Positions 3,100 through 60,955 of a DNA stretch of 64,000 nt are shown piece by piece. The DNA is taken from positions 7,331 through 71,330 of the forward strand of contig CAZKCV010000004.1 of assembly GCA_964551605.1 (NCBI GenBank), given 5' to 3'. The stretch comes from an uncultured Gammaproteobacteria bacterium (GTDB lineage: Bacteria; Patescibacteriota; Microgenomatia; Daviesbacterales; UBA10151). A program made the translations under genes and the position numbers. Position 1 is the stretch's first letter. Every line of letters begins with the position of its first letter. The notes under the pieces are model-generated. The model was not told the origin of the DNA. It did not search any database and was given only the letters and a program-made list of their open reading frames with translations.

Positions 3100-3362
3100 T
3101 AGTTAAATGCGTTTGTTTGCGTAAGCAACGATAAGTCCGCCGCAGCGGACGAGCAGCATACATCAGCCTTCGGGTAGAGTATGACAGAAATTGAACTGTA
3201 TAAATACAATAAGCGTGTCGGTAGCGGAGCGCTAATGAGGATTACCTCAAACAGTCTCCGCCGAAAGGCGGATTTTAAATGGGTAATCGAATACAAGGTG
3301 GCACCACGGAGATCCCGTCCTTGAGTTTAACTTTAATGTTAAAGTCAGAGACGGGATTTTTT
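3100..3362 (+). promoter_or_regulatory. T-box-riboswitch-like leader in front of the argHGF operon
   Basis: The sequence aatacaaGGTGGCACCACGGag resembles the T-box consensus AAUUAGGGUGGUACCGCGG. It is preceded by a small hairpin (ccgcc gaaa ggcgg) and followed by a terminator. Stem I and the specifier were not resolved by eye. Confidence 0.45.
3312..3362 (+). terminator. Intrinsic terminator (putative T-box terminator)
   Basis: Stem atcccgtc(3312-3319)/gacgggat(3350-3357) with an internal hairpin, then TTTTT (3358-3362). The argH ATG at 3363 follows immediately. Confidence 0.55.
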
Positions 3363-4565
3363 ATGAAAAAATTATGGCAGAAAAGTGAATATAAGTTAGA
3401 CCCGGTTGTGGAAGCCTTTGAAACCAAAGGAGATCTTTTGATGGATCAAAAACTGCTCAAATTTGATGTGCAGGGTTCATTAGCCCATGCCAAAATGCTT
3501 TTTAAGATCGGAATTTTATCTAAAAAAGAACTGGAAAAGATAGAAAAAGCTCTTAAGGAGATTTTGGATTTGGATAGAGCCGGGAAGTTTAATTTGGAAA
3601 TGGGGGATGAAGACATACACACCAAGATTGAAAACTATATTACCGAAAAATATGGTGAAGTGGGTCAAAAGCTGCATACCGGCAGGTCCAGAAATGACCA
3701 AGTACTAACTATGATCAGGCTTTATGGTAAAGACCAATTAGAGGCTATTGAGCTTGAATTAAATAACCTAATCAAGAGTTTTACTGTTTTTTCCCAAAAA
3801 TATGGTGCCATTAAAATGCCAGGTTATACCCATATGCAAAAAGCCATGCCTTCTTCAATTAAGATTTGGTGTGGTAGCTTTTTAAGCTCGTTACAGGATG
3901 ATATGGTTTTGCTTAAAAGTGCGATGGAGTTAAATAATCAGTCGCCTTTAGGATCAGGAGCAGGTTATGGTGTGCCGCTTGATCTGGACAAGAAATATTC
4001 TGCCAAGCTATTAGGATTTTCAAAAGTGCAGGAAAATCCGCTTTATTGTCAAAACTCCAAAGGTAAAACTGAGGCAGTAGTAATTGCCGGTTTAATTAGT
4101 ATTCTGCAAACTATAAATAAGTTTGCTTCAGATATGTTGTTGTTTACAACTGCTGAATTTGGTTTCTTTGTAATGTCTGACAAGGTGACTACCGGTTCCA
4201 GTATTATGCCGCAGAAAAAGAATGTGGATTTAGCAGAGTTACTAAGGGGTAAAGTTTCCCTGGTGTTAGGAAATTATGTTCAAATGGTCAGCCTTACGAC
4301 TAACTTAATCTCCGGTTATAACCGGGATTTGCAGGATATTAAAAAACCTTTAATAGAAAGCTTGGAAACCACTTTGGACAGCCTGAAAGTAACTAAGATT
4401 TTACTGGAGAATTCAACTCCTAATCAGGAAGTCCTGGAAAAAGCCATGACTCCGGAAATATTTGCTGCTGAAAAAGCTTTGGATTTAGTTAAAAAAGGAA
4501 TGCCGTTTAGAATAGCATATCAAAGAATCGGAGAGGAGGTGGATAACAGTGAAACAAACAACTAG
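3363..4565 (+). CDS. argH: Argininosuccinate lyase
   Basis: N-terminus MKKLWQ.. matches the conserved MKLWGGRF start of ArgH. Fumarase/lyase family features, the GSS..PQKKN region and ~400 aa length. The ORF-track start at 3279 lies inside the leader/terminator and was rejected. Confidence 0.85.
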   Translation: MKKLWQKSEYKLDPVVEAFETKGDLLMDQKLLKFDVQGSLAHAKMLFKIGILSKKELEKIEKALKEILDLDRAGKFNLEMGDEDIHTKIENYITEKYGEVGQKLHTGRSRNDQVLTMIRLYGKDQLEAIELELNNLIKSFTVFSQKYGAIKMPGYTHMQKAMPSSIKIWCGSFLSSLQDDMVLLKSAMELNNQSPLGSGAGYGVPLDLDKKYSAKLLGFSKVQENPLYCQNSKGKTEAVVIAGLISILQTINKFASDMLLFTTAEFGFFVMSDKVTTGSSIMPQKKNVDLAELLRGKVSLVLGNYVQMVSLTTNLISGYNRDLQDIKKPLIESLETTLDSLKVTKILLENSTPNQEVLEKAMTPEIFAAEKALDLVKKGMPFRIAYQRIGEEVDNSETNN

Positions 4566-26421: not shown

Positions 26422-26844
26422 ATGAATAATAAAGTCTTAATTGCTATTATAGTCATTATTGCCCTTCTGGGATTAGGGTACTTTCTTTCCCAATCTGCCA
26501 ACCGGCAGCCAACGGTTCAAGTAGTCCCTTCCGCAAATCCGGAGCAAGTACAGGTATCGGAAGCTGTAAAAACCTTTGATGTAAAGGGGACGCCTTTTAA
26601 GTTTGAGCCGAATGAGATTAAGATCAAAAAGGGTGATCGGGTGAAGATCAATTTTAAGAACGAGCAAGGTATGCTGCATGACTTGACTATTGCAGACTTA
26701 AATGTCAGGACCAAACAAATTCCGGCCGGAGAGACGGATTCGATGGAGTTTGTAGCTGATAGAGCCGGAACATTTGACATGATCTGCAGCGTGCCAACAC
26801 ATGCTGATAAAGGGATGGTGGGGAAGTTTATTGTAGAAGAGTAA
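26422..26844 (+). CDS. Membrane-anchored cupredoxin-like (type-1 copper-like) protein
   Basis: N-terminal TM helix; H(MLHD)..C(ICSV)..H(THAD)..M(GMVG) ligand spacing. Its RBS AAGAAGGGAGGTGAGAAG is shared with the RiPP precursor ORF. Confidence 0.5.
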   Translation: MNNKVLIAIIVIIALLGLGYFLSQSANRQPTVQVVPSANPEQVQVSEAVKTFDVKGTPFKFEPNEIKIKKGDRVKINFKNEQGMLHDLTIADLNVRTKQIPAGETDSMEFVADRAGTFDMICSVPTHADKGMVGKFIVEE

Positions 26845-54370: not shown

Positions 54371-56470
54371 TTATTTAACTGGTTCTCTTGGGATGCTCCG
54401 TTCGCCGCCGGTCCAATTGATATAGCTGTAAGTTCCCCACCTACGATTACCTAAGGCATTGTAAAGCGTTACGGAAAATTGAGGAGGCGTAGATGGTAAA
54501 CTGACCCCCCTGTCTCGCGCAAGTGCCGTTATACCAATGGATTGATTCTCATGAGCTATTGTCCTGGTAAAATTATGCCAACCATCCTTTAAATAGATGT
54601 AGTACGTGTCAAAGCAGAAATTATAACCATTGCAGCCTGACTGGTTAGAACCAGTTCCTGGTGTCGGTCCTCCGGCATAAGAAGTATTTTTGTTGGCATA
54701 GATAAGTACAAACCCATTTGTATTGTTATTGTAGTTTGAACTTCGCATTAGCTCTGAGAGGGTATTGTTATTAGGGGCGGGGGGTGAAACCTGGCTGGTA
54801 AAGGCGGCTCCGACTAGTTTTATATCGCTGCCATTTGTATTATCTACATTGGGGATGATGGTAATAGCATTATAGTAATTACTACCTCCTTGATTTGAGT
54901 CGGACCTTAAACCGCTAATAGTATAAGTCCCTGCTTCTTGTGAGCCGGTGGCCGAGTCAGGTTTGATTTGTAGGGTTCCTGGAGTTGGAGCGGTACAGGT
55001 AACGGATTTGGGAGAACCGGGGAGAAGAGTATGGGTGCCGGAACCAATGTTAATGCCATAGGCATAGATATTATGGGATCTGCCGTCCCTGAGGGAGTTG
55101 GCAGGAATAGTAAAGGAAAAGCCATGATTGGGGTTGCCGCCGCACTGGTTAGCTACTGCTGTTTCCCTGGGCAGATTGGCAGTGGCAGAGCCTAAGCCTG
55201 TGCCAGTGCCGGCCGGGCCATCCGCATAGAAATCTACCCTTAGGGAAGCATTGTAATTATCCCCGTCACAGGTCCAGCCGGTGATGGCCGCGCAAGTCCC
55301 GCCTTCCAGATTCCCCACCGGATTATAGGTGGCTTCCCCGTAAATCTGCAGGTTGGCCATATCTCCGGTTGCTGCATTGTAGCCGGAGGTGGGAGGATAA
55401 CCCGGGGGAGAATAATAAAAAGTATTAAAGTAGGCCCGGCCAGAAGTATAGGCATTCCGGGTATTGATGCCGTTGATAAAGACATTGCCCTTGCCGCAGA
55501 AAGGATTATCCAGCCTGACCTGGGAGCCGGAGGTATTAGTGCCATACAGGTCAATCTGGCGGGGTTCATTGGGCCGGTCGCAGTTATATCTGCCTTGTTC
55601 CCAGTAACCGCCTTCTTCAGAGCCTCTGTTTTGATCCAGATGGGATTGTTGGATGGAGAGGAAATGTTGCCCGGGTTGCAATTGATGATTGGGGATTGTG
55701 ACGGTTAAGTTGCCTCCGTCAAAAGTCCAATTGGGTCCGGTGTATTTTGAGGGCACGTCACCTTTGTAGTATTGGTCGGCTTGCACTGTATTATAGGAGG
55801 CGGGAGCAGGGGTCCAGTCAAAGGTAGACTCGCCAAAGATCACACCGCTGCCATATGGCACGCCCCACTGTGACCATTCATCCCGGAGACCCTGTTGATT
55901 ATCGGATAACATCTGATATGCCCTGGTCCATTCGGAGGCCCGGGGGCAGGGCCGCTGGGGATCATTAATGATCATTCTTCTTAAGAATAAAGCTTCAATG
56001 GAGTTCTGGTCCACTCCGCAAAGGCTGGCCAAATCATTGGCTAACTCACCACCGATAAAAATCCGTTCCTCCCTGGCTAACATCGGCCCGGTAGGAGAAA
56101 TAACCGTGGTCCGGCCTTCATAGCCAAACGGGCTGGATTGTCCTTCGGGAGAAGTAGCCACTTGAGTAGAAGCAGTTGGTTCTCCGGCAAATACAGCCAC
56201 AGAAACTATCCCACCGGTGTTGCCTCCGGCATGGCCCAGTTTAAAGTCGGTTAACCTGATCCGGTTGACTTTGACCACTCCCGAAGGGGCGGCAAAGCTT
56301 TGGCCGGCCAGGTGGTTATCGGTCCAGCCTGCCTCAGTAGTATTGCTGCCGGCCGGACCATTGCCCGGGAAAATTTCAATTTCAGCGGCTGAGGCCGGGG
56401 AGGGAAGAATAAGTAATATAAGTAATAAGAATAAACATGTAATGCTGAATAAAGCTTTAAGTTTGCTCAT
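54371..56470 (-). CDS. Large secreted hypothetical protein (Gly/Asn/Thr/Pro-rich)
   Basis: Signal peptide MSKLKALFSITCLFLLLILLILPSPASA; 699 aa. Confidence 0.4.
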   Translation of the reverse strand: MSKLKALFSITCLFLLLILLILPSPASAAEIEIFPGNGPAGSNTTEAGWTDNHLAGQSFAAPSGVVKVNRIRLTDFKLGHAGGNTGGIVSVAVFAGEPTASTQVATSPEGQSSPFGYEGRTTVISPTGPMLAREERIFIGGELANDLASLCGVDQNSIEALFLRRMIINDPQRPCPRASEWTRAYQMLSDNQQGLRDEWSQWGVPYGSGVIFGESTFDWTPAPASYNTVQADQYYKGDVPSKYTGPNWTFDGGNLTVTIPNHQLQPGQHFLSIQQSHLDQNRGSEEGGYWEQGRYNCDRPNEPRQIDLYGTNTSGSQVRLDNPFCGKGNVFINGINTRNAYTSGRAYFNTFYYSPPGYPPTSGYNAATGDMANLQIYGEATYNPVGNLEGGTCAAITGWTCDGDNYNASLRVDFYADGPAGTGTGLGSATANLPRETAVANQCGGNPNHGFSFTIPANSLRDGRSHNIYAYGINIGSGTHTLLPGSPKSVTCTAPTPGTLQIKPDSATGSQEAGTYTISGLRSDSNQGGSNYYNAITIIPNVDNTNGSDIKLVGAAFTSQVSPPAPNNNTLSELMRSSNYNNNTNGFVLIYANKNTSYAGGPTPGTGSNQSGCNGYNFCFDTYYIYLKDGWHNFTRTIAHENQSIGITALARDRGVSLPSTPPQFSVTLYNALGNRRWGTYSYINWTGGERSIPREPVK

Positions 56471-56473
56471 AGT

Positions 56474-56911
56474 TTATTTAATCTCCGGATCCAGAATCAC
56501 TATCAGGTTTGTTTCCAGAAGGCCTTCTGTATTTGCGGCAGCAGAAATTGATACAGAACTGCCTATTTGGGCAGAAGAGGAAGCCGGTACTGTGCCAATG
56601 GAATTGGGGCCGAAACGCTGCTGTTTTAAGATAGCGGCGCCGGTAGCAATCCGGATGTCTATTTCCTGGTCATCACTTACTTTTACGGTTAATACATTGT
56701 CTTCAATCCGGCTGATTTCACCTTCCACCAGTTCAGAGGTGGGTAGCTCTGTATCTTCCGGTGCAGCAGTTTCTTCAGTAATGTTACTTTTCTGTTGGGT
56801 TAAAAAGTAAGTAGCAGCCAAACCCAGACCTGAAAGCAGGATGGCAGTAATAATAATTAAGCTGATCCGGTTTAAGAAGATATTTTTTAATAGATTAAGT
56901 TTAGAATCCAT
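56474..56911 (-). CDS. Membrane-anchored hypothetical protein
   Basis: Start placed at the internal Met MDSKLN..; one TM helix. The track's TTG start at 57001 was rejected. Confidence 0.35.
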   Translation of the reverse strand: MDSKLNLLKNIFLNRISLIIITAILLSGLGLAATYFLTQQKSNITEETAAPEDTELPTSELVEGEISRIEDNVLTVKVSDDQEIDIRIATGAAILKQQRFGPNSIGTVPASSSAQIGSSVSISAAANTEGLLETNLIVILDPEIK

Positions 56912-57000
56912 AAATTTATTATGGCTTTTTTTATGCAGGATATGCAAGTGTCTCTTGGCAGTTTTTTTCACCTTAACTTTATAATACAATATCTGCCGCA

Positions 57001-57165
57001 ATGGTCAAGTTGAATGCAAAGCAATTAAGGAAGGGTAAAGGGGAAAGCGTAAAGGGTGAAGTAAGAAAGAACAACATCTATATTATCCTGGATAATGTTT
57101 TAGATACCTATAATATTGGTTCTATCTTCAGGCTGGCAGATGCAACTTTGAAGATTTTACATTGA
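57001..57165 (+). pseudogene. Duplicated 5' fragment of the TrmH-family methyltransferase gene (48 codons + 6 novel codons)
   Basis: 57001-57143 matches 59764-59906. A 53-bp core is identical; a 42-nt G-rich heptad block differs. Confidence 0.5.
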
Positions 57166-57219
57166 CATATTGGTTAAGAATGAGGTATCTTGCAAATATT
57201 CCTGCCTGATAGAGGTTGA

Positions 57220-58551
57220 ATGACAAAACAAGAGATTTCTATTTCGGATCATCAAGAGCCTAATTTATTGAGATTACGCGGTGGAGTTTTTCTTGTTGAA
57301 GGATCTAAACGGGCAGCTCTATATGATACAAACAGCGGTAATGTCTATTCGCTTAACCAAGAAGCAACTCAAACAGTAAAAGGAGAAGCTAATTATCCCG
57401 AATTTTGGTCAAAACTTGCTTCTATGCAACTGGTTGTTGCCAGACAAGATTCCGCAACTGAGTTGATCATTTCAGAAGTTGAAATTCCGAAACCAACCTT
57501 GCAATTTGCATGGTTAGAACTTACTGAATTGTGTAATGAACGTTGTCTTCACTGCTATGGCAGTTTTTCTCCAGATAAGCAAGATAAAATTGCTAGATCT
57601 CTTGATCATACAGAATGGAAAGATACTATACAATCGTTGGCAGAAAATGGCTGTAAACAAATTCAATTTATCGGCGGAGAACCTTTTAGGTACCGCGGTG
57701 AGACAAAAACACAAACTGTTTTAGATTTGGCTGACTTTGCTAAAGAGCAGGATTTTAGTTTAGTTGAGATATTTACTAATGGAACGTTGATCTCGGCAGA
57801 AATTGTTAAAAGAATAAAAGATCTTGAAGTTTCAGTTGCTCTTTCGCTCTATTCATCAAACGCTGCGATTCATGACAATATAACACAAACCCCTGGAAGT
57901 TACAGAAAAACTCTTAGGGCAATTAATATGTTGAGAGAAGCAGATGTTTCGCTGAGAGCAGCTATTATTGTAATGAAACAAAATGAAGATACTATTGAAC
58001 AAACATTAGAGATGGCTCAAAATTTAGGCTTGAACGTTAGAGTCCCTGATGCAGTGCGCCCCAGTGGGAGGGCACAAGAAACAGATATAATTCCAAGTGT
58101 CGAAATGCTCATAAAATATGGGCTTATCACAAAACCGAATTTCTCAACCGATCCAGTTAGCTTTCAGCGAAACCACCTGTATCACAGTTGTTTAGCCGGT
58201 AAGGTTGCAATTACTAGGGATAGACAAGTCATCCCTTGTATTTTCTCAAGAGATAACACATTAGGTAATCTTAGAGATCAAAAATTGGCAGATGTACTTG
58301 AGTCTCCAGTTCTAAAAGAAACTTGGGAATTAACCAAAGATAAAGTTTTGGTTTGTAGAGACTGCGAATACCGTTACGCTTGTTCTGACTGCCGTCCGCT
58401 TGCTGAAGGTTCAAATTGCGGAAAAGGCTATTCAAGCGCTCCCTTTCCAAGATGTACCTATAATCCGTATACTGGTGAATGGGGATCCGGTGTGTGGAGG
58501 ATGAACAGTCAGGGAGAAATTGTTTATGAAGAATTGCCAATACAAAAGTAA
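57220..58551 (+). CDS. Radical SAM / SPASM-domain peptide-modifying enzyme with an N-terminal RRE-like extension
   Basis: ELCNERCLHCYG CX3CX2C motif; a C-terminal Cys-rich twitch/SPASM-like region (C..CRDCEYRYACSDCRP..CGKG..CTY); ~90 aa precede the rSAM core. Confidence 0.8.
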   Translation: MTKQEISISDHQEPNLLRLRGGVFLVEGSKRAALYDTNSGNVYSLNQEATQTVKGEANYPEFWSKLASMQLVVARQDSATELIISEVEIPKPTLQFAWLELTELCNERCLHCYGSFSPDKQDKIARSLDHTEWKDTIQSLAENGCKQIQFIGGEPFRYRGETKTQTVLDLADFAKEQDFSLVEIFTNGTLISAEIVKRIKDLEVSVALSLYSSNAAIHDNITQTPGSYRKTLRAINMLREADVSLRAAIIVMKQNEDTIEQTLEMAQNLGLNVRVPDAVRPSGRAQETDIIPSVEMLIKYGLITKPNFSTDPVSFQRNHLYHSCLAGKVAITRDRQVIPCIFSRDNTLGNLRDQKLADVLESPVLKETWELTKDKVLVCRDCEYRYACSDCRPLAEGSNCGKGYSSAPFPRCTYNPYTGEWGSGVWRMNSQGEIVYEELPIQK

Positions 58552-58572
58552 AAAGAAGGGAGGTGAAGAAAT

Positions 58573-58782
58573 ATAAAAGAAAATACCGAAATTTTAGCTC
58601 AACAAGCGGCTAGTAGGCAGGTTGGTTCTGGACCCACAATTGAATTGGTAACACCTAAAGCTGGAATGGGCATGGAACCAAGTGGAGTTTGTCCTCCAGA
58701 TTGTGCTCCAGGTGCAATTTGTCCTCCAAATTGCTTACCGAATTGTCAGCCGTCGTGTCCGCCGACAATATTTCCAAGATAG
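58573..58782 (+). CDS. Cys-rich candidate RiPP precursor peptide (core ..VCPPDCAPGAICPPNCLPNCQPSCPPTIFPR)
   Basis: Frame open from 58567 to TAG 58780-58782. A strong SD GGGAGGTGA lies directly after the rSAM stop. The codon at the canonical start position is ATA (58573); alternative starts are TTG 58645 and ATG 58666. Confidence 0.4.
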   Translation: MKENTEILAQQAASRQVGSGPTIELVTPKAGMGMEPSGVCPPDCAPGAICPPNCLPNCQPSCPPTIFPR

Positions 58783-58817
58783 CCTGAATCTTCCAAGCAG
58801 CCTAAACTACCGCCGAA

Positions 58818-59729
58818 CTAAGGCGGAATATGTAGCGTATTGGGGGTGGGGGCAATCAGGAATTGTGGCCAGGTTTTAGGGTATAGAGTCATGATAATTT
58901 TGCCGAAAACAAAGGCGAAATCGTGAGGGTATTTGCGTGGTTCTAATACAGAATCTACTTGGTCGAGATTATTTTCTTTTTCGACCTTTAGTAGGTATCC
59001 CATTGTATTGGCAGCAAAGATATCAAAGTTTCGTTTATGAGTCGGCCAAAAAATCATACTTGCCTGATATTCACAACAGAAAGCAAAGAGCTCGGTTATT
59101 CCTTCAACGGCGGGAAACCGAATTGGCAATTTTGCAAATTTTTCGCTCTTGGAGTGAGATGAATTTTTTACTTCGGAGTAGAGCTGTTTAACGGTTTTCA
59201 ACAGCAGGAGATTTTCCTTCTTATTTGAGTAATACCAAAGTTTGTGTTGGTGCCAGTAAGCGTGTCCGAATTCGTGGACAATAGTAGCCATGTAACTCTC
59301 GCGGGTGGTATAGGGGTTGTTTTTACGTCTTTTCATTTTCTTTTGGAGTTCAGTAAAAGGTATTAATAATCCTCCGGAGATAAAAGAAGTTATCAACTCA
59401 TTAGTTTTTAGTTTTGAGAGAAGTAACCGAGTTAGTTTCGGTAGTTTTAGACCTGCTCTCCACCAGTATTGATAATCATCGGAGATTTTAAGTTTATGGA
59501 GAATTTTGTAGGCAAAATATTGTTTCAGGCTGCATTTAATAGAGGTAAGCTTGGGAAATTTTGCCTGTGACCAAAGATAAATATTTTCGCAGTCATAACT
59601 GACAACAATTACCTTTTCAATTAACTTTTTGTTCTTAAACACAAAATTTAGTTTGGGATGCCAAACTGAATTTATTCCTTCTTCAATTGCCTCGAAGTCT
59701 TCTTTTACCGCTTTGTAGTTTTCAAACAT
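58818..59729 (-). CDS. Putative zinc metallopeptidase (HExxH)
   Basis: ATIVHEFGHAYWHQH motif; 303 aa; convergent with the precursor ORF. Confidence 0.5.
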   Translation of the reverse strand: MFENYKAVKEDFEAIEEGINSVWHPKLNFVFKNKKLIEKVIVVSYDCENIYLWSQAKFPKLTSIKCSLKQYFAYKILHKLKISDDYQYWWRAGLKLPKLTRLLLSKLKTNELITSFISGGLLIPFTELQKKMKRRKNNPYTTRESYMATIVHEFGHAYWHQHKLWYYSNKKENLLLLKTVKQLYSEVKNSSHSKSEKFAKLPIRFPAVEGITELFAFCCEYQASMIFWPTHKRNFDIFAANTMGYLLKVEKENNLDQVDSVLEPRKYPHDFAFVFGKIIMTLYPKTWPQFLIAPTPNTLHIPP

Positions 59730-59763: not shown

Positions 59764-60297
59764 ATGGTAAAACTTAATGCAAAGCAATTGAGAAAGGGTA
59801 CAGGGTACAGGGTACAGGGTACAGTTAAGCGCAATGAGATCTATATTGTTTTGGATAATGTTTTAGATACCTATAATATTGGTTCTATCTTCAGGCTGGC
59901 AGATGCGGTGGCAGCCAAAAAGATTTACCTTTGCGGGGGAACAGAGACTCCGCCCAATCACCGGATTAAGAAAGCTTCCATTAATACCACCGAAGTAGTG
60001 GAGTGGGAGTACTTCGAAACAGCCCTGGAAGCAGTTTCAAGGGTAAAGCGTGAAGCGAAAAGGGTAAAGATAATAGCGATAGAACAGAGCCCTAAATCAA
60101 TCCAATATAATACTTTTGAGTATAAATTGCCCATATGTTTGGTGGTAGGGCATGAAAGTAACGGGGTAAGCAGGGAAGTTTTGGAAATTTCTGATGCCAT
60201 TGTTGAAATTCCCATGTTCGGGGTTAATATTTCTTTAAATGTTGTGGTTTCTTTAGGGATAGTATTGTATGAAGTTATTAAGAAGAGTGATAATTAA
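59764..60297 (+). CDS. TrmH/SpoU-family RNA 2'-O-methyltransferase
   Basis: SpoU motifs NIGSIFR...GTE and a C-terminal LNV..S; contains the (GGGTACA)x4 in-frame repeat. Confidence 0.7.
   Translation: MVKLNAKQLRKGTGYRVQGTVKRNEIYIVLDNVLDTYNIGSIFRLADAVAAKKIYLCGGTETPPNHRIKKASINTTEVVEWEYFETALEAVSRVKREAKRVKIIAIEQSPKSIQYNTFEYKLPICLVVGHESNGVSREVLEISDAIVEIPMFGVNISLNVVVSLGIVLYEVIKKSDN
59796..59824. repeat. (GGGTACA)x4 heptamer tandem repeat (family A variant; G4 motif) in frame in the trmH-like CDS
   Basis: Perfect 7-nt repeats. The duplicated fragment at 57033-57061 carries GGGTAAAGGGGAAAGCGTAAAGGGTGAAG at the same place. Confidence 0.6.
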
Positions 60298-60301
60298 AAT
60301 T

Positions 60302-60955
60302 ATGTCGGGAGATTCTAGGATAAGTATTATGCAAGCTTCAGGTAGACTAGGGCCATACTTAAGCAGTATCCGCAAGAGTGCGCAAGAGGCGGTTTCCAAG
60401 ATTGAAGCAAAGATCCCCTTAACTGGTGTTGATGTTGTTATCTGTGATAATCCTAGAGCTACAATTCCACATTTGGGTATCGGTGGTCAAACTGTGACAT
60501 CTAATCTGGTGATAGTATCGCTAAACCCAAGCTCTAAATTCTTAATAAACAAAATTGAAGAGGCGATACTGAGAACCTTGGCCCACGAGCTAAACCATTG
60601 CGCAAGATGGGAATGCGTAGGATACGGAAAGACTCTCCTGGAGGCGATGATTTCAGAAGGATTAGCAGATCATTTTGATGAAGAGATTTCAAAGGGAGAA
60701 CCGCAATCCTGGAGTAAATCTCTAAGTCTCAGGCAGATAGAACGATTTTTAGGGCTGGCTAAGGAAGATTTACATAACAAGAACTATAATCATACGGATT
60801 GGTTTTTTGGGTCAAAAACCAAAAAAATCCCAAAATGGACAGGTTACAGCCTGGGATATTATCTGGTAGAGGAGTATCTGAAGAGGAATTCCGGTAAGCA
60901 GCCGTCCGACATTTACAATTTAACTGCATTACAGTTTATTAAATCAGATGATTGA
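60302..60955 (+). CDS. Putative Zn-dependent protease (DUF2268-like, HExxH)
   Basis: LAHELNHCARW motif; start placed at the internal Met after the trmH stop. Confidence 0.45.
   Translation: MSGDSRISIMQASGRLGPYLSSIRKSAQEAVSKIEAKIPLTGVDVVICDNPRATIPHLGIGGQTVTSNLVIVSLNPSSKFLINKIEEAILRTLAHELNHCARWECVGYGKTLLEAMISEGLADHFDEEISKGEPQSWSKSLSLRQIERFLGLAKEDLHNKNYNHTDWFFGSKTKKIPKWTGYSLGYYLVEEYLKRNSGKQPSDIYNLTALQFIKSDD

Follow-up and report, generated by a model that had tools for sequence, protein, structure and literature searches.

Introduction

The closest described counterparts of the locus analysed here are the sactipeptide and ranthipeptide systems (SkfB/SkfA, AlbA/SboA, CteB/CteA and the PapB type). 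Their maturases and ours have a radical SAM core and a SPASM domain in common, our enzyme is modelled with an N-terminal strand-helix domain that may correspond to their leader-recognition element, and in both cases a small adjacent gene encodes a conserved leader and then a Cys-rich core. Our locus differs from these systems in that the precursor lies downstream of the enzyme, in that CxP units repeat regularly in the core, to which a polyproline tail is often attached, and in that the partner is an unclassified HExxH protein, with no transporter. To our knowledge, no sactipeptide or ranthipeptide family with a CxP-repeat core has been described. These comparisons suggest that the cassette works like a sactipeptide or ranthipeptide cassette while lying outside every curated family tested.

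The anSME/AtsB enzymes, which convert Cys or Ser to formylglycine in the motif (C/S)-x-P-x-R, are SPASM radical SAM enzymes too. The likeness extends to the substrate, as Pro is found at +2 of 97% of the 380 Cys residues of 60 family cores, and anSMEcpe is among the fold matches of our enzyme, slightly lower in the ranking (rank 8, E 4.6e-10). Unlike anSME, the cassette enzyme has a putative leader-binding N-terminal domain and would act on a small peptide with a leader and many motifs, in which N or D is favoured at position +3. Position +4, the Arg of the anSME motif, is occupied in the six units of our peptide by C, A, C, C, C and I, with no Arg, and the best 25 of 83 NCBIfam matches of the enzyme include no anSME model; the similarity is one of generic fold only. 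We regard the resemblance of the CxP motif to the anSME motif as a lead and not as membership.

AUA is a poor start codon in model bacteria. Near-cognate AUA starts and start-loss mutations are both already known phenomena. The described near-cognate starts (the AUU of infC, the AUG-to-AUA mutant of T4 rIIB and the AUA reporters of E. coli) place an AUH codon at an SD-appropriate spacing, as does our locus. The AUU of infC is tied to IF3 autoregulation, whereas no such regulatory logic is evident at our ATA, which is sporadic in its precursor family (three of about 70 loci) and not conserved; in the E. coli systems AUA is 1-15% active. New here are the cassette family itself and the recurrence of an ATA start in otherwise intact ORFs, with one other case in a fully intact cassette. 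No description of the cassette family was found in searches of the literature on radical SAM RiPPs of CPR/Patescibacteria or in that on bacterial ATA starts.

Results

Organization of the cassette

The window, that is, the whole stretch of 64,000 nucleotides that was analysed, contains at 57220-59729 a conserved three-gene RiPP cassette of Patescibacteria (Microgenomates-like), made of a radical SAM/SPASM gene, a precursor gene and a convergent gene for an HExxH protein. The features of the cassette and of its borders are the following.

57001..57143, plus strand: partial second copy of a SpoU/TrmH methylase gene, limited to its 5' end, by which the cassette is bounded on the left
57162..57191, plus strand: promoter-like site TTGACA-18-TATCTT, a weak consensus-only match, the number of such sites in the region being not above chance
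57220..58551, plus strand: radical SAM/SPASM peptide maturase, 443 aa (PF04055, PF13186)
58558..58566, plus strand: Shine-Dalgarno (SD) site GGGAGGTGA of the precursor gene, a perfect SD match, also from family comparison
58573..58575, plus strand: ATA where orthologues have an ATG start (G to A at 58575), from DNA alignment, homologues and contigs
58573..58782, plus strand: precursor ORF, 69 codons and a TAG when counted from the ATA, a family member by HMM and jackhmmer
58633..58656, plus strand: leader motif PTIELVTP, invariant in 15 aligned relatives
58678..58733, plus strand: 30-nt in-frame tandem duplication (copies 58678-58703 and 58708-58733) that adds two CxP units
58690..58779, plus strand: core with six CxP units (CPPD, CAPG, CPPN, CLPN, CQPS, CPPT)
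58780..58782, plus strand: TAG stop, premature relative to the closest relatives, aligned with a tail Pro codon of loci L165, L091 and L167
58783..58821, plus strand: relic proline-rich tail PESSKQPKLPPN with the ancestral TAA at 58819-21, now untranslated, homologous to L165
58818..59729, minus strand: convergent 303-aa HExxH protein, in which the HExxH and a Glu further downstream are invariant
59764..60297, plus strand: intact SpoU/TrmH methylase gene (PF00588, E 4.4e-32), its first 143 nt being the right repeat copy

The maturase matched PF04055 with an E value of 1.4e-20 and PF13186 with 28.4 bits against a cut-off of 21.5. Its radical SAM CxxxCxxC motif (CNERCLHC, with C105, C109 and C112) and its SPASM cysteines (C324, C340, C379, C382, C388, C391 and C412) were invariant in 18 homologues. 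Daviesbacteria, Roizmanbacteria, Woesebacteria, other Patescibacteria and a few Chloroflexota are the sources of the nearest homologues. None of the curated NCBIfam cut-offs (StsB, AlbA, SkfB, grasp-with-SPASM maturase, ScmE/F and others) was reached among the best 25 of 83 matches, all of them scoring far lower, for example 97 against 175 for SPASM_w_grasp, 88 against 625 for StsB and 69 against 850 for AlbA. The AlphaFold model of the enzyme (pLDDT 73.6) had its best PDB matches in SkfB and SuiB, followed by BlsE, CteB and the sactipeptide-maturase entry 5why. The N-terminus of this AF2 model consists of strands (residues 17-45) and then helices (47-80), and almost all of the model is covered by its fold matches to SuiB and SkfB, while Pfam gave no PqqD match in the enzyme at E values up to 1. 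The modelled N-terminal strand-helix domain of about 95 aa may recognise the leader.

Residues H152, E153, H156 and E213 of the HExxH protein are invariant, and in at least 40 related loci tblastn placed its gene immediately behind the precursor, in convergent orientation. The protein gave weak zincin-like or DUF7844 matches only in Pfam and nothing in a PDB profile search, and its single-sequence AlphaFold model was unusable (pLDDT 36.5). We infer that it is the leader peptidase. Both partner genes of the window are full length and keep all invariant residues. Terminator and promoter scans around the peptide gave nothing above chance.

The two SpoU copies that border the cassette (57001-57143 and 59764-59906) are 83% identical over 144 nt, and the Pfam SpoU_methylase match in the left copy covers the N-terminal part only. 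Both Logan contigs that are identical to the window have their left end at 57114, within the left copy, and the right end of one of them (L001), at 59814, falls within the right copy. Other genes border related cassettes, a polyprenyl synthase in L165 and DAC in L167. Comparison of these loci suggests that the cassette is mobile between genomes. In L091 and L165, both the peptide and the HExxH gene are close to those of the window (75-78% identity), while the adjacent radical SAM gene of L091 is only 44% identical; recombination appears to reshuffle maturase and precursor modules. Directly upstream of the cassette, on the minus strand, are genes for a 699-aa protein with a signal-peptide-like N-terminus (54371-56470) and for a 175-aa protein (56474-57001), neither with a Pfam match. 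A gene for a DUF2268 predicted zinc protease (60269-60955) overlaps the end of the intact SpoU gene and is a second putative metalloprotease near the cassette.

The precursor frame and its ATA codon

An earlier reading, made from the sequence only, had described a frame open from 58567 to 58782, with an in-frame ATA (58573-75) placed 6 nt beyond GGAGGTGA, and with its first ATG at 58666. All of this was confirmed: an in-frame TGA at 58564-66 lies just before the frame, inside the SD, as the last in-frame stop before the ORF, and a TAG at 58780-82 ends it. The complete list of canonical starts in the frame is TTG 58645, ATG 58666 and ATG 58672, no ATG, GTG or TTG being found in frame from the upstream stop to the leader motif. 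The TTG, which had been overlooked, would open a 45-aa ORF; it is the Leu codon within PTIELVTP and has no SD. The size first proposed (70 aa with a 43-aa leader) needs correction, as a product begun at the ATA has 69 aa, of which 39 precede the first Cys. The attribution to RiPP-type precursors was right, since the ORF begins 21 nt after the stop codon of the radical SAM/SPASM gene (TAA 58549-51) and its product has a conserved leader ahead of a Cys-rich core.

The radical SAM gene and the precursor ORF (57220-58782) are in the same frame, separated only by the TAA at 58549-51 and the TGA at 58564-66. This common reading frame is probably a coincidence, the arrangement being not conserved in L085. 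Read-through from the radical SAM gene into the precursor was rejected on the same ground and because two stops lie between them.

Comparison with orthologous loci, which had been proposed as a check, was run and showed that the relatives have an ATG at the position of the ATA, with a conserved leader. The DNA alignment reads GGAGGTGAAAAAAT-ATG-AAAGAAAAT in relatives and GGAGGTGAAGAAAT-ATA-AAAGAAAAT in the window. The nearest loci have GGAGGTGA-AAAAAT-ATG-AAA-GAA-AAT where the window has GGAGGTGA-AGAAAT-ATA-AAA-GAA-AAT, and L085 and L031 have GGGGAGGTGA-AAAAAT-ATG-AAA-GAA-AA where it has GGGAGGTGA-AGAAAT-ATA-AAA-GAA-AA. At the protein level, the N-terminus MKENSE[LMV]LAQQ...GSGPTIELVTP of the closest relatives corresponds to IKENTEILAQQ...GSGPTIELVTP in the window frame. 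The same SD motif precedes the start at the same spacing in L085, L031, L083, L091, L163, L164, L167 and L168, the 6 nt that follow GGAGGTGA in the window being the spacing of L085. Because the DNA contexts align, the ATA is the orthologue of the ATG start, altered by a G-to-A transition at 58575; on this alignment the start of the window precursor is a mutated ATG.

The argument from an equivalent position had originally been built on a cupredoxin gene of the window, a correct assignment (Pfam PF13473, E 3.5e-14), for which a spacing of 6 nt had been given. Its GGAGGTGA is at 26410-17 and its ATG at 26422, which makes 4 nt, so that the argument is inexact for the cupredoxin gene, although it is exact for the orthologues of the peptide itself. 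The idea of a special ribosome binding site common to the two genes also failed: GGAGGTGA is a plain consensus SD, which the precursor genes of related loci carry as well, and it occurs three times in the window against 1.28 expected, a count reached by 13 of 100 shuffles. A regulatory link between precursor and cupredoxin gene through the ribosome binding site was rejected, as GGAGGTGA is not enriched and the spacings are 4 nt and 6 nt.

Apart from a non-canonical start, the sequence-only reading had allowed for an assembly error, the true base at 58575 being G. Nothing speaks for such an error except the prior expectation of ATG starts. Contigs L001 (SRR4343428) and L002 (SRR4343430) of the Logan assemblies match the window without a difference over 2.7 and 2.0 kb and carry the ATA, and contig L169 (SRR12113384), 99.9% identical with one base different in 1126, also carries it; the A at 58575 is thus present in contigs from three other sequencing runs, of two accession series, one of these contigs coming from a strain that differs by one base elsewhere. 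The ATA is a real allele, and we hold the chance of a sequencing or assembly error to be negligible. The choice as it had been framed, between a non-canonical start and an error, therefore loses its second term, and it lacked a third, a start-loss mutation that silences the gene.

Translation could also begin further downstream, at TTG 58645 (45 aa) or at ATG 58666 or 58672, giving a core with a short leader or none. These are the sole canonical starts in the frame, and the public gene caller chose an internal ATG in the related locus L163. However, none of them has an SD, the TTG lies inside the invariant PTIELVTP and the later starts would drop the one universal leader element of the family. 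Moreover, the stretch from the ATA to the canonical codons evolves as coding sequence (leader dN/dS 0.09-0.24), and homologues begin upstream, at the SD. We rejected TTG 58645 and ATG 58666 as unlikely starts, since both lack an SD and would cost the peptide its invariant leader motif, and consider a downstream start very improbable.

The peptide family and the constraint on the window precursor

Our search for related peptides, with HMM and jackhmmer on stop-to-stop ORFs, covered about 160 loci and gave about 65 distinct peptides, nearly all of them 20-150 nt downstream of the radical SAM gene; a profile search of a protein database found 75 called peptides. In all members the leader motif (P/A)(T/E)IxLV(T/S)P comes before a core rich in Cys and Pro, and the peptides had no match among Pfam or NCBIfam models. 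PTIELVTP is probably the element recognised by the maturase. Cys-Cys spacings in the family cores are mostly 4-7 residues (for example in the window, 58690-58779, and in L003-L168). Many members end in a polyproline tail, PRPPKPPGPN or PPKPPPPRPN (L165 3090-3132, L091, L085 and P0121-P0175), the composition of which is like that of proline-rich antimicrobial peptides; the window copy has lost it. Some loci have two or three precursor genes (L083 at 1162-1371 and 3294-3656, three ORFs in L018 and two in L134), and in peptides P0186 and P0195 two leader-core modules are fused in one ORF, with PTIELVT twice.

In alignment A2 (15 sequences, including that of the window), the window peptide keeps all invariant columns except Met1. 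Its leader has an in-frame deletion of two codons, and its core contains the tandem duplication, with copies of 26 nt that are 85% identical and 30 nt apart, which is absent from relatives. There is no frameshift in the precursor; the start codon is lost and the TAG removes the tail. The relic beyond the TAG, 12 codons plus TAA, aligns in frame with the tail and stop of L165, L091 and L167 and matches the RPPEPPKPPPPRPN-TAA of L165, five Pro codons having changed to S, S, Q, K and L. Tail-less relatives occur naturally, namely peptide P0148 and the second copy in L083.

Pairwise dN/dS against relatives lay at 0.19-0.26 over the whole peptide and at 0.09-0.24 within its leader, similar to the values of the partner genes (0.12-0.23 for the radical SAM gene and 0.17-0.25 for the HExxH gene). 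At conserved sites, three synonymous and two conservative non-synonymous changes were found in the window lineage alone. The conservation before the old TAG, together with the decay after it, implies that the truncated ORF remained under selection once this older mutation had occurred.

Start codons across the family

We then tallied the start codons of about 70 DNA-verified homologous genes located just downstream of the same radical SAM/SPASM gene. The codons at the canonical start position were the following.

ATG: 61 loci
GTG: 2 loci (L095 and one of the two peptides in L134)
TTG: 2 loci (L004 and L164)
ACG: 2 loci (L160 and L166)
ATA: 3 loci (window, L163 and L167)

The ATA locus L167 has an intact 460-aa radical SAM gene and an intact 298-aa HExxH gene, and its ATA is independent of that of the window because the HExxH tree puts L167 in a clearly separate lineage. 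L163 is the nearest peptide relative of the window (81% identity, with the lowest dS, 0.45), but the HExxH-gene tree groups it with ATG-bearing loci (70% bootstrap) and not with the window. The ATA codons of the window and of L163 may be of shared or of separate origin, the two peptides being nearest neighbours and the HExxH-gene tree disagreeing. Both ACG loci are visibly decayed. In L160 (1-1007) the radical SAM gene lacks about 930 nt, corresponding to residues 70-364, and the SD is mutated, while L166 has no radical SAM gene upstream and its unique peptide changes are one synonymous and seven non-synonymous.

A scan of all GGAGG sites gave no other convincing ATA start, and the other genes of the window have no non-canonical starts. 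General use of ATA starts in this genome was rejected on the result of the GGAGG scan.

The three ATA loci are all wrong in the public gene calls. No gene is called at the window locus, an internal ATG is used in L163 (82-324), and the calls for L167 (1670-1900) and for the ACG locus L166 (532-768) begin at a GTG that lies within the SD. The called N-termini of L163, L166 and L167 are wrong because the true start position holds an ATA or an ACG.

Discussion

The reading that we favour, with a probability of about 0.5, is that weak initiation at the AUA gives the 69-aa precursor, the ATA being a hypomorphic (leaky) start and not a null one. Ribosomes would initiate at the AUA at a lowered rate by means of the retained SD of 8-9 nt and the 6-nt spacing typical of the family. 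The unstructured, A-rich initiation region and the AAA second codon would aid such a start, and ribosomes that terminate at the radical SAM stop 21 nt upstream may help. The product would be a 69-aa precursor with the N-terminus fMet-KENTEILAQQ, whose PTIELVTP leader would be bound by the maturase, through its N-terminal domain. The maturase would then act on the cysteines of the six CxP units, most likely to form thioether cross-links, and the HExxH protein would remove the leader. The steps that follow translation, from leader binding and CxP modification to leader removal, are proposed from family resemblance.

We prefer a leaky AUA start to a silenced precursor because the initiation region is near ideal except for the codon and because AUA can initiate. 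No structure was predicted in the initiation region (MFE -6.5 kcal/mol over 81 nt, z 0.39). An AUG-to-AUA mutant of T4 rIIB kept about 15% of residual translation, a phage murein hydrolase with AUA reached 7.5%, and AUA was AUG-like in vitro with an optimised initiation region (PMC5499595). The absence of internal decay, the intact partners and the recurrence of the ATA in the intact L167 cassette all point to the leaky start.

Several observations go against it. G-to-A is the easiest mutation in a genome of 42% GC, which makes ATG-to-ATA the likeliest neutral loss of a start; the nearest sampled relative is at a dS of about 0.45-0.8, so that a conserved ORF could mean a recent loss; the conserved proline-rich tail has already gone; and the ATA is found in only 3 of about 70 loci, the other genes of the window having no non-canonical start. 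The main rival reading is a start-loss pseudogene, in which the G-to-A change at 58575 ended useful translation of the precursor and the cassette is at an early stage of decay, with the ORF and its partners still looking intact. Cassettes of the family do decay with changes of the start, as L160 (ACG, with an internally deleted radical SAM gene) and L166 (ACG, with no adjacent radical SAM gene) show, and in the window the premature TAG had already removed the conserved tail. AUA is only 1-2% as active as AUG when measured with reporters in E. coli (bioRxiv 10.1101/063800), gene callers call no gene at the locus, the position of the cassette between diverged SpoU duplicate fragments suggests an acquired accessory element, and the comparative tests give no date for the start mutation.

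However, the precursor shows no frameshift, no internal stop and no loss of an invariant residue, and its lineage has no excess of non-synonymous changes (three synonymous and two non-synonymous, against one and seven in the ACG orphan L166). The radical SAM and HExxH genes are intact and constrained (dN/dS 0.12-0.25), in contrast to L160. The same ATA is found in the independent intact cassette L167, the allele is present in runs of two accession series, and conservation before the old TAG is followed by decay after it. We consider loss of the gene to be a serious possibility, at somewhat less than even odds.

The leaky AUA start could also be a property of the family. The AUA would then be a tolerated or even favoured weak start in this RiPP family, in which ATG is replaced repeatedly in cassettes that are otherwise intact (window, L167 and possibly, as a separate event, L163) and the precursor is throttled relative to the maturase; we find this rather unlikely and put it forward only tentatively.

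Public gene callers skip or truncate precursors of this kind, and RiPP mining based on called ORFs consequently loses or shortens them. The cassette is widespread in Patescibacteria and in some Chloroflexota and offers enzymology a defined CxP substrate motif. The ORFs that carry the three ATA alleles are otherwise intact, and one of these ORFs lies in a second cassette that is itself fully intact; these alleles provide a cheap handle on AUA initiation beyond model bacteria. The translation apparatus of Patescibacteria is unusual. If AUA is indeed tolerated or favoured in this family, Patescibacteria would start at AUA well enough for a working pathway, and the ATA loci would be natural test cases of start-codon stringency in an uncultivated phylum.
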